Assembly: GCF_053078305.1 (NCBI RefSeq) | Contig: NZ_CP166879.1 | Strand: one strand, 5' to 3' | Length of the DNA stretch: 64,000 bases | Part shown: piece after piece, positions 31,753 to 37,700 of the stretch | How positions within the stretch are numbered: the first letter of the stretch is position 1 | Layout: every line of letters starts with the position of its first letter | Program-made: the position numbers

Positions 31753-34700
31753 TCAGAATTAACTTAACTGTGAATCATGATGTTTTTAGCATCCTGATAA
31801 GAGCTAAAAGTTTTAACGCTACGTTGTTCGATGGTCAACGCAACGAAAAACAATTCAGATTTTCTTTATAAGAATAGCTGATATTTATTAAGTTAATATT
31901 AAGCAGTGAAATTTAGTCTATAAGATAAATGGCAAAAAAAAAGCCCGGTGCAATATACGCCGGGCCTCAATTTTATTGTTGGTTAAATCAGATTAATCCA
32001 GCCATTCAGTATGGAACACACCTTCTTTATCAATGCGCTTATAAGTATGTGCACCGAAATAGTCACGCTGTGCCTGGATCAGGTTCGCAGGCAGAACAGC
32101 GGCACGGTAGCTATCGTAATAGGCAACCGCAGCGGCGAAGGTCGGAACCGGGATACCGTTCTGTACTGCATAAGCAACGACATCACGCAGCGCCTGCTGG
32201 TAGTCATCGGCAATTTGCTTGAAGTACGGAGCCAGCAGCAGGTTAGCGATCTGTGGATTTTCGGCATAAGCATCGGTGATTTTCTGCAAGAACTGCGCAC
32301 GGATGATGCAGCCAGCACGGAAAATCTTCGCGATTTCGCCGTAGTTCAGATCCCAGTTGTACTCTTCAGACGCCGCACGCAGCTGAGAGAAGCCCTGAGC
32401 GTAAGAAACGATTTTGCCCAGATACAGAGCACGACGAACTTTTTCGATGAACTCACCTTTGTCGCCAGCTGGCTGCGCTTGCGGGCCAGAGAGAACTTTA
32501 GATGCGGCAACACGCTGCTCTTTCAGAGAAGAGATATAACGAGCAAACACAGACTCGGTAATCAGCGACAGTGGTTCGCCGAGATCCAGCGCGCTCTGGC
32601 TGGTCCATTTACCGGTACCTTTGTTTGCTGCTTCATCCAGAATCACATCAACCAGGTAGTTACCGTCTTCATCTTTTTTGGTGAAGATATCTTTGGTGAT
32701 GTCGATCAGGTAGCTGCTCAGTTCACCGTTATTCCACTCGGTAAAGGTCTGTGCCAGTTCTTCGTTAGAGAGATTCAGGCCGCCTTTCAGGAGAGAATAG
32801 GCTTCAGCAATCAGTTGCATATCACCGTATTCAATACCGTTGTGAACCATCTTCACATAATGGCCTGCGCCATCAGCACCGATATAGGTAACGCACGGTT
32901 CGCCATCTTCAGCAACGGCGGCGATTTTGGTCAGGATCGGCGCAACCAGTTCATAGGCTTCTTTCTGGCCACCAGGCATGATGGACGGCCCTTTCAGCGC
33001 CCCCTCTTCACCGCCGGAAACACCGGTACCGATGAAGTTAAAGCCCTCTGCTGAAAGCTCACGATTACGACGAATAGTGTCCTGGAAGAAGGTGTTACCA
33101 CCATCAATGATGATGTCACCTTTATCGAGATATGGTTTGAGGGAATCAATAGCAGCATCCGTGCCTGCACCTGCTTTCACCATTAACAGGATGCGACGAG
33201 GCGTTTCCAGAGATTCAACAAACTCTTTCACCGTATAGTAAGGAACCAGCTTCTTGCCTGGATTTTCGGCAATCACTTCTTCCGTCTTTTCACGGGAACG
33301 GTTGAAAATAGAGACGGTATAACCACGGCTTTCGATGTTGAGCGCAAGGTTGCGCCCCATCACTGCCATACCGACTACGCCGATCTGTTGCTTTGACATT
33401 GTTTACTCCTGTCAGGGGGTGGTCACCGCCGAGTGTGCGGCTTAAATGTGGTATAGATGTTAACTCACTCATAGAGATGGTGAATAGCATTACCTTTGCT
33501 ATACCACACTGAATGTCTCACCTTTTCCGTCATTTAAAACTTATTTATATGAAATTACTGAATTACTTGTTCAGTAACTCAAGGATAAGTTTTGTCTTTT
33601 CTTCCATCAGCGGCACATCACCGCGAGATTCCACATTCAACCGCACCACCGGTTCGGTGTTGGAGGTGCGCAGGTTAAAGCGCCAATCGGCAAAGGTCAT
33701 GCTGATGCCATCGGTGCGATCCACCGCCAGCGCCTCACGGCTAAAATGCTGTTCCACGCGGTTAATCGCCTCAACGGGTTGCGCCAGTTTGCTGTTGATC
33801 TCACCGCTTGCCGGAAACGCCGCCATCCGGTCGCGCACCAGTTCGCCCAGCGTTTTTCCTTTCAGGCACACCAGTTCGGCTACCAGCAGCCACGGGATCA
33901 TGCCGCTGTCGCAGTAAGCGAAATCACGGAAGTAATGGTGGGCGCTCATTTCGCCACCGTAGATGGCGTCCTCCTTGCGCATACGTTCTTTAATAAAGGC
34001 GTGTCCGGTTTTCGACATTACCGGGGTGCCGCCTGCGGCAGTCACCACATCAACGGTGTTCCAGGAGAGACGTGGATCGTGGATGATCTTCGCGCCGGGA
34101 TTTTTTTCGAGGAATGCTTCTGCCAGCAGACCGACAATGTAGTAGCCCTCGATAAACTGCCCTTTTTCGTCAAACAGGAAACAGCGGTCAAAATCGCCAT
34201 CAAAGGCAATGCCCATATCCGCGCCGTGTTTGATGACCGCATTACGGGTGTCGTCGCGGCATTCTGGCAGTAGCGGGTTAGGAATACCGTTGGGGAAATT
34301 GCCGTCCGGCGTGTTGTGCACTTTGATTAATTCCACGGGTGCGCCGAGGGCTTTAAAGCGGGCTTCAATGGCGTCCACTACCGGCCCCGCTGCGCCGTTC
34401 CCGGAGTTAATCACCAGCTTGAGCGGCGTGAGGTTTTTGACGTTGATATAACCGAACAGGTGATCAACGTAAGCGTCACGCAGATTGATTTGCTGATAGC
34501 GACCGCGTTTGGTTTCATCGACGGGAGGAAAGTCGTTGGCTTCTGCCAGGCGCTGGACATCGCGCAGTCCGGTATCACCGCTGATCGGGCGAGCCCCTTC
34601 GCGCACGAGTTTCATGCCGTTGTAATCCATCGGGTTATGGCTGGCGGTAACTTCGATGCCGCCATCCACGCCGAGATGGAACGTGGCGAAATAGATCTCT

Positions 34701-37700
34701 TCGGTGCCGGACATGCCAATATCCAGCACATCGACGCCCGCATCCTGTAAACCTTTCGCCAGCGCCAGTTTTAAGGTTTCGCTGGTGAGGCGGACATCAC
34801 CGCCTAACACAATGGTTTTCGGTTTGAGAAATTCGCCATAGGCGCGACCAATGCGCCACGCAATATCTTCATTCAGTTCTTCGCCTAATTTCCCGCGAAT
34901 ATCATAGGCTTTAAAGCAGGTTAATTTTTTCATATAAAAACCTTACCAATAATAAAATTATTTATGCGCAAACAATTGCATTAGTTTTGAGATTTTTCTG
35001 ATAATGATAGCAATTTTCCAATTTACATTATGGTTTTTCATAACTTCTACAATTTCCTTTGTACTTGATATCGCGTTATCAATTCTGGTACTTTCCCCAC
35101 CCAATCTCATCTTTACAAATACTTGAGGAACATAAATAACTTTAATATCATCACGTTTCAAAATCCTGACCATCTGATCATAGTCTGCAGCAATCCTATA
35201 GGATAAATCAAAATATCCATCGTCTTTATATAATTCCCTCCTCATATAGAAAGATGGATGCGGTGGTGCCCAGCCTAATGATAGCTTAGAACGTTTAAAA
35301 GGACCACTACGCCAGTATCGTTTGATTATATCAATTTGGTTTTTTTCGAAAAAAACCAAATCACCGTATACAACATCCGCTTTTGTCTCATGGAAACGGC
35401 TTACAATAGTTTCAATAATATCAGGTCTTGCTAAAAGGTCATCAGAATGAACGAATCCAATAATATCTCCCGTAGATAAATTTATACCTTTATTTAAAGC
35501 ATCATAGATACCGTTATCGCTTTCTGATAGACATTTGGTTACTCTTGTTGATACTTCGTTAATTAGTTTTAACGTATTATCTGTAGAACCACCATCAATA
35601 ATTATATACTCTATATCTTTATAGGTTTGCAACTCTATTGACTCTAAAGTATCCCTTAAAGTCTTTTCACTATTATAAGTCACTGTAATAATACTGACTT
35701 TCATTTTAACATCCAATAATAATCATAATTAAATAACGTCAGTACAGCATTACGAATAATAATGTTGCATTAGTATCCAGCATCATTTTAGATTCTAACA
35801 ACATCATCTTCATCCAAGTAGACACCTGAACGTACCTCAATAATCTCCAAAGGGATCTTTCCTGGATTCTCAATAAAATGAGGTACACCTATTGGTATAT
35901 AAGTTGATTCATTTTCAGAAACAAGAAATATTTCATCTTCATAATGGACTTTTGCTGTTCCAGAAACAACAATCCAATGCTCAGTACGATGGTAATGAAT
36001 CTGTTTAGCAGTTTTATGTCCAGGATGAATAACGACATGTTTAACCTCAAATCGAGATCCTTCCGCTATAGAGTCATGACTGCCCCATGGCCTAAATATT
36101 TCACGATGCTGCAGATATTCCGTACGGTTATTAACTTTAAGTTTTTCTACAATATTTTTTACCTGTTGAACTTTATCTTTATGCGCAACGAGAATAGCAT
36201 CTTTAGTTTCAACAACTACTAAATCTTTAACTCCTACTACACCAATTAATCTATGTTGTGAGTAAAGATAACTGTCAGAAGAATCATGAATTAATACATC
36301 TCCTCTAATTGCATTTCCACTTTTATCTTTTCTGCTAATTTCCCATAATGCAGACCAAGAACCAACATCGCTCCAGTGGGCATTTAATGGAACTACCACA
36401 GCCTCTGTTGTTTTCTCCATAACAGCGTAATCAATGGATTCTTCAGGGCAACAACTAAATGAGTCATTATCTATACGGATAAAATCAAGATCTTGTGTAG
36501 AGGACTTCAATGCTTGTTGGCATATTTTTAGTATGTCTGGTCTAAATTTATTCAACTCATCAATAAACACAGAAGCCCTAAACATGAATATTCCACTATT
36601 CCAAAGATAATCTCCATCTTCAAGATATTTTTTGGCCACATCTAGCTCAGGCTTTTCAACAAAAGCAGAAACTTTAAAACCATATTCATTTAAATTTTCT
36701 CCGGTTTTTATGTAGCCATATCCAGTTTCGGGTTTGGTTGGCACAATACCAAAAGTTACCAGCTTACCTTCCTCTGCAAATTCTTTTGCAGCCAATATTG
36801 ACGATATAAAGCGCTTTTGGTCTTGTATTTCATGATCGGCTGCTAGTACAAGCAGTATTGGATCCTCACCTGATGAAATTGCTTTAAGAGCAGCAAGCGC
36901 AACTGCGGGGGCTGTATTACGACCTATCGGCTCTAGTAAAATGCCACTATTCGCTAAATTTACATTACGCATCTGTTCTGCAACGATAAAACGATGAACT
37001 TCATTACAAATAACCAGAGCAGGACGATGTTCAACCCCTTCAAGCCTTCTTAAGGTCTCTTGTAGCATAGTCAAACGACTAGTTAACGATAGGAATTGCT
37101 TCGGATATAGTGTTCGAGAAAGTGGCCACAATCTAGTTCCAGAACCACCGGCCATTACAACAGGAAGTAGCATATAAATAACCTTCACTTAAAATAATTT
37201 TTTGTGTACTGATGAACTGAGGAATTAGCTAACAATTCGGCTATATCGAACCAATTGTAAGTACTATGTTGTAGTGTTGGATAGTTAATTTGATGTGGCA
37301 TCAAACTAATCTCATATCCGTGTACGACATAATGAGTTGAAAAACAAGTCCCAGAAAAATTGTCGCTGTAGAAATGTTCATAAATCCCAAGAAATTTTGC
37401 TTCATTAATGCTAATTTGAACACCCAATTCTTCAAAAGTAACTCTTTTGAATGCGTTCTCGAAAGACTCATCTTTAAGAATCCGTCCCCCCGGCACAAAC
37501 CAATAATTTTGTGCTGGACGATTAAGGCGCTGACCAAGCAGCGCCTTACCATCTTCGTTTCTTATAATAAGGTCTATCGAGATTAGTGGAGTATGTTCAA
37601 CTATTGATTTAAATAACTCTGTTTCTAATCTCTTGTTCAATATTAACTCCTAAATGAGTCAAGATTATTTATAAACCATTTATATGTTAATTCTAGTCCT

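Follow-up and report, generated by a model that had tools for sequence, protein, structure and literature searches.

A manB–cpsG direct repeat flanking 22.3 kb of an Escherichia coli O11 polysaccharide region: mosaic gene structure, shared alleles and deletion

Introduction

How does a gene within a low-GC O-antigen cluster come to be nearly identical to a gene of the neighbouring colanic-acid cluster, and what follows for the DNA that lies between the two? This question is raised by a stretch of 64,000 nucleotides of Escherichia coli DNA (contig NZ_CP166879.1 of RefSeq assembly GCF_053078305.1), here called the window, which comprises the amn-tRNA-Asn-cob-sbcB-his-wzzB-ugd-gnd-O antigen-galF-gne-colanic acid region and carries two genes for phosphomannomutase, manB in the O-antigen cluster and cpsG in the colanic-acid cluster. 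A preliminary description made from the sequence alone had pointed to these genes as a near-identical direct repeat and as a potential substrate for deletion and gene conversion. The analysis reported here makes it very probable that manB is a mosaic gene drawing on a pool of alleles common with cpsG, that conversion takes place between the two genes, and that recombination between them can delete 22.3 kb.

Results

The O-antigen cluster of the window is that of E. coli O11, which is carried by 65 of 5,426 complete E. coli genomes in RefSeq, with a best match of 99.7% identity; for the colanic-acid region the best match in the same set was 98.9%. The locus layout with two phosphomannomutase copies is alike in all 65 complete O11 genomes. 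The two copies and their parts are as follows.

33563..34933, minus strand: manB of the O11 O-antigen cluster, an intact mosaic gene for a phosphomannomutase of 456 aa (open reading frame (ORF) list, NCBIfam NF011943, GC content)
33601..34933, minus strand: first copy of the repeat, the cpsG-type core of manB, codons 1-444 (gene-oriented alignment and repeat search)
33563..33600, minus strand: 3′ tail of manB with low GC content, comprising the final 12 codons and the stop, non-homologous to cpsG, from which it differs at 17 of 38 nt
55896..57265, minus strand: colanic-acid cpsG, 1,370 nt, frameshifted as sequenced (ORF list and alignment)
55934..57265, minus strand: second copy of the repeat, the cpsG core (gene-oriented alignment and repeat search)
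56995..56996, no strand: site at which cpsG has lost 1 bp (plus-strand GCCGCC reduced to GCCGC), in codon 91 at gene column 271

Gene-oriented alignment of manB with cpsG revealed a homologous block of 1,333 columns, and a repeat search gave identical ends. The block is 97.1% identical, above the bar of 90 percent that the preliminary description had set for a near-identical repeat, with 38 substitutions and one gap of 1 bp that corresponds to the deletion in cpsG. All 38 substitutions are located at third codon positions and all are synonymous; with the frame of cpsG restored, the two proteins agree at every residue from 1 to 444, while 7 of the last 12 residues differ. At the 5′ side the repeat starts with the ATG, as had been described, and a mismatch is found already at position −1. 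At its 3′ edge it leaves out the final 38 nt of the gene, stop codon included, so that the loss of identity near this end was rightly noted but placed too far upstream, at about 45 bp before the stop codon; the C-terminal peptides given for both genes are correct.

Both genes are encoded on the minus strand of one replicon, i.e. in direct orientation, 22,333/22,332 bp apart. The two values arise from the gap, which had been overlooked when the differences were described as scattered substitutions at a constant offset: the offset is 22333 for 33601..34662 and 22332 for 34664..34933. In an ungapped scan at offset 22,333 the identity rises from about 0.2-0.3 to 0.92-1.0 between 33,600 and 34,650 and then apparently collapses, which the gapped alignment explains by the shift of 1 bp. 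The similarity of peptides translated from antisense ORFs, described before as identity, holds for one pair over about 100 residues, but the other pair differs at 19 of 176; it is a trivial by-product of the near-identical DNA. As the flanks compared at equal offset are only 16-38% identical, and the window's other four pairs of paralogues only 51-70%, the repeat is not due to chance. Exact-match runs of 128, 98, 96, 74 and 59 bp occur inside it. In E. coli the minimal efficient processing segment is about 25-30 bp, and the longest of these runs lie well above this size.

The product of manB scored 1,053.7 bits against the NCBIfam profile NF011943, 'phosphomannomutase CpsG' (cut-off 801), over residues 1-456 of 456. 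This score and the match of the cluster to O11 agree with the gene identities assigned in the preliminary description. RefSeq labels the O-antigen manB 'cpsG'. The sequences TASHNP, DGDFDR, GEMSAHH and RTSNTEP were all found in the translation of manB; we take them to be the phosphoserine, metal, sugar and phosphate loops, respectively, of the alpha-D-phosphohexomutase superfamily. Both genes are thus predicted to encode phosphomannomutase, which would convert mannose-6-phosphate to mannose-1-phosphate and feed the synthesis of GDP-mannose and GDP-fucose.

Base composition divides manB into two parts. The core has a GC content of 55%, and the tail has about 31% compared with 56% for the corresponding tail of cpsG; according to the composition profile, the O-antigen cluster around manB has 30-39% GC. 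The five O11 genes that possess a colanic-acid paralogue compare as follows (GC3, GC content at third codon positions).

manC: GC 37.3%, GC3 0.23, 58% identity to the colanic paralogue
gmm: GC 35.3%, GC3 0.30, 51% identity
fcl: GC 35.4%, GC3 0.23, 64.5% identity
gmd: GC 38.6%, GC3 0.24, 70.5% identity
manB: GC 54.6%, GC3 0.64, 96% identity over the whole gene

The product of O11 manC scored below the cut-off of the CpsB-specific NCBIfam profile (670 versus 859 bits), and that of manB above the CpsG cut-off. GC content, GC3 and paralogue identities therefore identify a cpsG-type core in a foreign low-GC cluster, of which only a short native 3′ end is left. The tail is common to O11 loci and to E. 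coli B REL606, which has an O7 cluster. Hence manB is a mosaic: codons 1-444 come from the cpsG allele pool, and the last 12 codons together with the downstream spacer are native low-GC sequence. An original low-GC manB was presumably overwritten by cpsG sequence.

A crossover between the two copies concerns the following interval.

34934..55933, no strand: interval removed by a manB–cpsG crossover (synteny with annotated O11 loci; missing in deletion-type genomes)

Its O11 part contains genes for a GT2 glycosyltransferase, manC, gmm, fcl, gmd, a GT4 glycosyltransferase, galE, a further glycosyltransferase (GT), wzy, a second GT2 and wzx; beyond these lie the JUMPstart element, galF, gne/gnu, wcaM, wcaL, wcaK, wzxC, wcaJ and the cpsG tail. 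Unequal crossing-over between the copies would remove 22.3 kb, which comprise the complete O11 cluster together with galF, gne and wcaM-wcaJ, and would leave one chimeric gene between cpsB and gnd, consisting of cpsG from position 1 to x and of manB from x+1 to the end. An algC RNA motif (Rfam RF02929, 57270..57319, minus strand, 77.3 bits versus a gathering score of 33.8) is located directly upstream of the cpsG ATG. As it lies outside the repeat, manB is without this motif and a deletion chimera would keep it.

Deletions of this kind are known from the laboratory. In the long-term evolution experiment (LTEE), seven recombinational deletions between manB and cpsG were reported, one of them of 23,293 bp (PMC4173774; bioRxiv 10.64898/2026.06.14.732165); of the 12 populations, 10 had lost the region (Raeside et al. 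2014, PMC4173774). In the locus sequence of REL606 the spacing of the manB–cpsG repeat is exactly 23,293 bp, compared with 22,333 bp in the window. Both strains have the same gene pair in the same orientation and position (gnd-manB ... wcaJ-cpsG-cpsB), and they agree in the 3′ junction and in the final 38 nt of manB; the REL606 repeat is 95.3% identical up to gene position 1310 (published as 96%), compared with 97.1% in the window. Because of the equal manB tail and 3′ junction, this identity and the similar spacing, the repeat of the window is a deletion substrate of the REL606 kind. The two loci differ in the intervening cluster, which in REL606 is O7 with IS1 and without gne, and in the frameshift of cpsG, which belongs to the window. 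Moreover, manB of REL606 (L015 2934..4298) differs at its 5′ end, which is shorter by 6 nt and has diverged from position 4 to position 15; unlike in the window, the 5′ junction therefore lies inside the gene. The likeness of the tails suggests a common origin of the gnd-proximal manB end across serogroups.

Relatives of the strain carry the deletion products. A junction query composed of gnd, spacer and manB joined to the cpsG-cpsB spacer and cpsB was searched in the complete genomes, and eight of them covered at least 96% of it in one place. All seven that were inspected show the order gnd-(single phosphomannomutase gene)-cpsB-wcaI-gmm-fcl-gmd and lack the O-antigen cluster, galF and wcaM-wcaJ, the interval whose loss had been anticipated; gne is also missing in those whose parent had gne. 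They fall into four O-antigen backgrounds.

LR536431, HG994851 and CP128888: O7-type manB end; tail and spacer nearly identical to REL606 in LR536431 and CP128888
CP069459 (FDAARGOS_1249): O11-derived
CP076232 and AP026116: O157, with perB and the ISAs1 remnant kept
AP045169: O75, with only wzx kept

The eighth genome, CP054345, is probably a further O75 deletion product. CP069459 is the clearest case: the O11 strains MB06232 and MS 198-1 match its his-gnd side with 99.93-99.94% identity, the O11 strain B771 matches its cpsB side with 99.94%, and in its hybrid gene cpsG-type sequence gives way to manB-type sequence between positions 75 and 324 of the gene. Four hybrid genes examined closely (L011-L014) all have an open frame, a manB-type tail and a cpsG-type upstream region. 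They differ mutually by 40-70 nt and reside in flanks that are 3-6% diverged, which indicates that the deletions were independent events. At least seven or eight of the 5,426 genomes look like independent deletion products. The junction of the reciprocal duplication (wcaJ-cpsG core joined to O11 GT2/manC) was covered by no genome in this set, the best match being the normal O11 arrangement with 84% coverage.

Together with the LTEE deletions and the equivalent repeat of REL606, these genomes bear out the suggestion that the repeat is a deletion substrate. The manB–cpsG crossover may well recur in nature and not only in the laboratory, and we consider this somewhat more probable than its opposite. 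Strains of several serogroups would then lose, in one step, the O-antigen cluster and with it half of the colanic-acid genes, but would keep an intact chimeric phosphomannomutase gene. Normal O75 clusters seem to hold a cpsG-like manB, the spacer and part of a cpsB-like manC beside wzx-gnd; their repeat with the colanic-acid cluster would seem to be longer, about 2.5 kb.

Exchange of sequence between the copies was assessed with the manB and cpsG alleles of the window, of nine other O11 genomes and of one O169 strain. In the first 1,305 nt, manB and cpsG differ at 31-53 positions and cpsG alleles of different strains at 30-56. Between ten O11 manB alleles and eleven cpsG alleles, 54 polymorphic sites are shared and a single difference, at site 75, is fixed; the Hudson-Kaplan method gave a minimum of 35 recombination events for the same set. 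The core of manB and cpsG hence share one allele pool. The excess divergence of manB is confined to this core: in comparison with eight O11 strains, the O11-specific genes of the window are 0-0.66% different and the manB core 1.65-3.68%, at least four times the divergence of any O11-specific gene, while the 202 bp of manB tail and gnd-manB spacer are identical to the window in five of the eight (L001, L003, L004, L005, L010). Within the core, the comparison with strains L004 and L001 revealed an island of differences of about 740 bp with near-identical sequence on either side.

33650..34390, minus strand: approximate patch in which the manB of the window has about 22 differences from the common O11 manB allele (100-bp sliding comparison and polymorphic-site table)

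The outline of this patch points to a recombination or conversion tract inside the core.

The O169 strain has a cpsG-like manB as well (L002 6399..7772), with a junction about 25 bp earlier and a different tail. This manB has 17 differences from its resident cpsG and 38-51 from other cpsG alleles, except for the cpsG of the window, which has 19 differences from it and is itself only 2 differences away from the O169 cpsG. Within the set, this pair gives the clearest hint of exchange within one genome.

For O157, Iguchi et al. (2011, PMC3158064) attributed the divergence of manB to gene conversion with cpsG; in that paper Samuel et al. (2004) are cited for the replacement of the original O157 manB by the colanic-acid gene. 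The manB pattern of O11 repeats the one published for O157. The allele comparison and the O157 work support gene conversion between manB and cpsG, as proposed in the preliminary description, at the level of the population. Non-reciprocal homologous exchange, presumably mediated by RecA, would keep the manB core and cpsG in the common allele pool and would give manB a variability far beyond that of the other genes in the O11 cluster. The strain studied here would itself be subject to such exchange and to the deletion.

Several observations weigh against this account. Between the two copies of this genome no recent conversion tract was detected in a run-length test: the longest identical run has 128 bp, and 39 differences placed at random would lead one to expect about 140 bp (P = 0.58). 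The strain's own cpsG has 37 differences from its manB, and the nearest cpsG allele has 31. A donor of the window-specific patch was not found among the 5,426 genomes, in which the best match was 98.0%, and for this patch ectopic conversion by cpsG and allelic import of another strain's manB are inseparable, which leaves the latter a live alternative. Finally, the deletion-type genomes are known from assemblies alone.

The variability of O11 manB, including the patch, could then mainly reflect import of manB alleles at the gnd-proximal edge of the cluster and not conversion by the resident cpsG. Besides the missing donor and the fact that the strain's own cpsG is not the allele closest to its manB, this explanation can draw on gnd, which adjoins manB and is itself 2.4-4.6% diverged among O11 strains, and on the equal tail and 3′ junction of O7 (REL606) and O11 manB, by which the manB genes of other serogroups become homologous donors. 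However, the tail and spacer that lie between gnd and the core are unchanged in the five strains named above, and for L004 and L001 the first 400 bp or so of gnd are nearly identical to the window while the manB core differs, so that the tract is internal and does not extend from gnd. In addition, a single fixed difference next to 54 shared polymorphisms requires ectopic exchange at some point, and the O169 manB is far closer to its resident cpsG than to most other alleles. We therefore regard allelic import as the main source of variability as possible but rather unlikely.

That cpsG was duplicated recently within this lineage, the two genes being a young pair of paralogues instead of an old manB overwritten by cpsG, would account for the near-identical coding sequences and for proteins identical over 444 residues. 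Yet the 38 synonymous differences are about as many as those between cpsG alleles of unrelated strains, and every O11 locus examined, as well as O7 REL606, carries the hybrid gene with the same low-GC tail and spacer. The repeat also ends inside the gene at a sharp break in GC content (from 56% to about 31%), as expected from partial replacement of manB, and the other four GDP-mannose and GDP-fucose genes of the cluster are old, low-GC paralogues. On account of the synonymous divergence, the tail common to O11 and O7 and the GC break, recent duplication was rejected as very improbable. Purifying selection alone, suggested by strong selection on the protein with synonymous differences only, and an assembly artefact placing one gene twice have practically no chance of being correct and were rejected on the alignment, the paralogue comparison and the layout of the 65 genomes, because the two genes agree at about 91% of third codon positions, pairs under comparable constraint (manC/cpsB, gmm, fcl and gmd) reach only 51-70% identity overall with opposite GC3, and the two copies differ at 39 positions, lie in unrelated flanks and recur in equal layout in all complete O11 genomes.

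The deletion at codon 91 splits cpsG of the window into two ORFs, 56945..57313 (122 aa) and 55896..56963 (355 aa). The latter starts at Met102, after the catalytic serine of TASHNP, and the frameshift thereby parts the N-terminus from this serine. A second frameshift is located in the colanic-acid gmd (61567..62687), in which a 1-bp deletion at about 61928 (CGCCGG to CGCGG on the plus strand) gives ORFs of 136 aa and 302 aa. In both genes the missing base is one C in a GCC context, and the two deletions are the sole frame-breaking indels relative to the closest relatives over 42 kb. Neither was found in any of the 5,426 complete E. coli genomes, the best match being 98.6% with the gap included, and a search for exact 39-nt matches in one genome of each species found neither frameshift. 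Both affected genes are colanic-acid copies with an intact O11 paralogue, two of five such genes; with gene lengths taken as a rough basis, (5.4 kb / 58 kb) squared gives a probability of about 0.9% for two random hits among the five. The frameshifts may represent decay permitted by redundancy, or two sequencing errors. If the cpsG frameshift is real, crossovers after column 271, i.e. in about 80% of the core, would pass it on to the chimera, and no functional phosphomannomutase would be left.

Other O11 genomes have been damaged independently within the same region: fcl has an internal stop in APEC37 (L005 16744..17709), wzy carries IS1 in strain ES8 (L006 22132..24038), and galF carries IS4 in strain MS 198-1 (L010 25601..27932). 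Further features of the window are listed below.

46208..46246, minus strand: JUMPstart element upstream of the O11 cluster, at its expected position
22151..22274, plus strand: His leader upstream of hisG, at its expected position
52752..52922 and 57355..57461: repetitive extragenic palindromic (REP)/BIME-type repeats in the wcaK-wzxC and cpsG-cpsB spacers, respectively, one of which matches Rfam naRNA4
3406..3481 (minus strand), 5230..5305 (plus strand) and 7638..7713 (plus strand): three tRNA-Asn (GTT) genes, identical or near-identical, forming direct and inverted repeats

The genes among the three tRNA-Asn genes are presumably yeeO, cbl and nac, judged from ORF sizes and the K-12 gene order. 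REP elements in the same two spacers of the colanic-acid region have been described (PMC3158064).

Discussion

An O-antigen manB that resembles the colanic-acid gene is not peculiar to O11. In Salmonella enterica LT2, Stevenson et al. (1991) reportedly found rfbK, the manB of group B, to be nearly identical to the colanic-acid cpsG and to diverge at its 3′ end, the manC/cpsB pair being said to be much less similar than rfbK/cpsG; species and O-antigen cluster are different there. In E. coli O157 a cpsG-like manB (>95% identity) likewise lies within a low-GC O-antigen cluster. The other genes of this cluster are conserved, and manB diverges more than any of them, its dN/dS being low (PMC3158064); this divergence pattern equals that of O11. 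O157 differs from the window in the 3′ tail of manB, in wbdR/perB and the ISAs1 remnant between manB and gnd, and in the serogroup cluster itself. In more general terms, the repeat resembles rRNA operons, copies of insertion sequences (IS) and tufA/tufB, where recombination between dispersed copies leads to gene conversion and, for direct repeats, to deletion; the manB–cpsG events of the LTEE are listed beside IS and rrn events (Raeside et al., PMC4173774). The difference is that a pair of single-copy metabolic genes is involved here and that the crossover removes two surface-polysaccharide loci.

For O157 and E. coli B, and reportedly for Salmonella LT2, a cpsG-like manB that undergoes conversion with its colanic-acid copy and permits loss of the interval is already known, and the O11 case adds an instance but no new principle; only the natural deletion products and the two colanic-acid frameshifts are modestly new. 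The repeat explains how a single homologous event can make E. coli rough and defective in colanic acid, why the history of a serogroup cluster is not reliably marked by its O-antigen manB alleles, and why annotation pipelines name the O-antigen gene 'cpsG'. Maddamsetti & Orman (2026, bioRxiv 10.64898/2026.06.14.732165) described a chimeric cpsG-manB gene and asked how frequent such chimeras are in nature. Natural isolates of at least four O-antigen backgrounds carry the deletion type of the LTEE, and their chimeric genes bear on the question of how frequent such genes are in natural populations.

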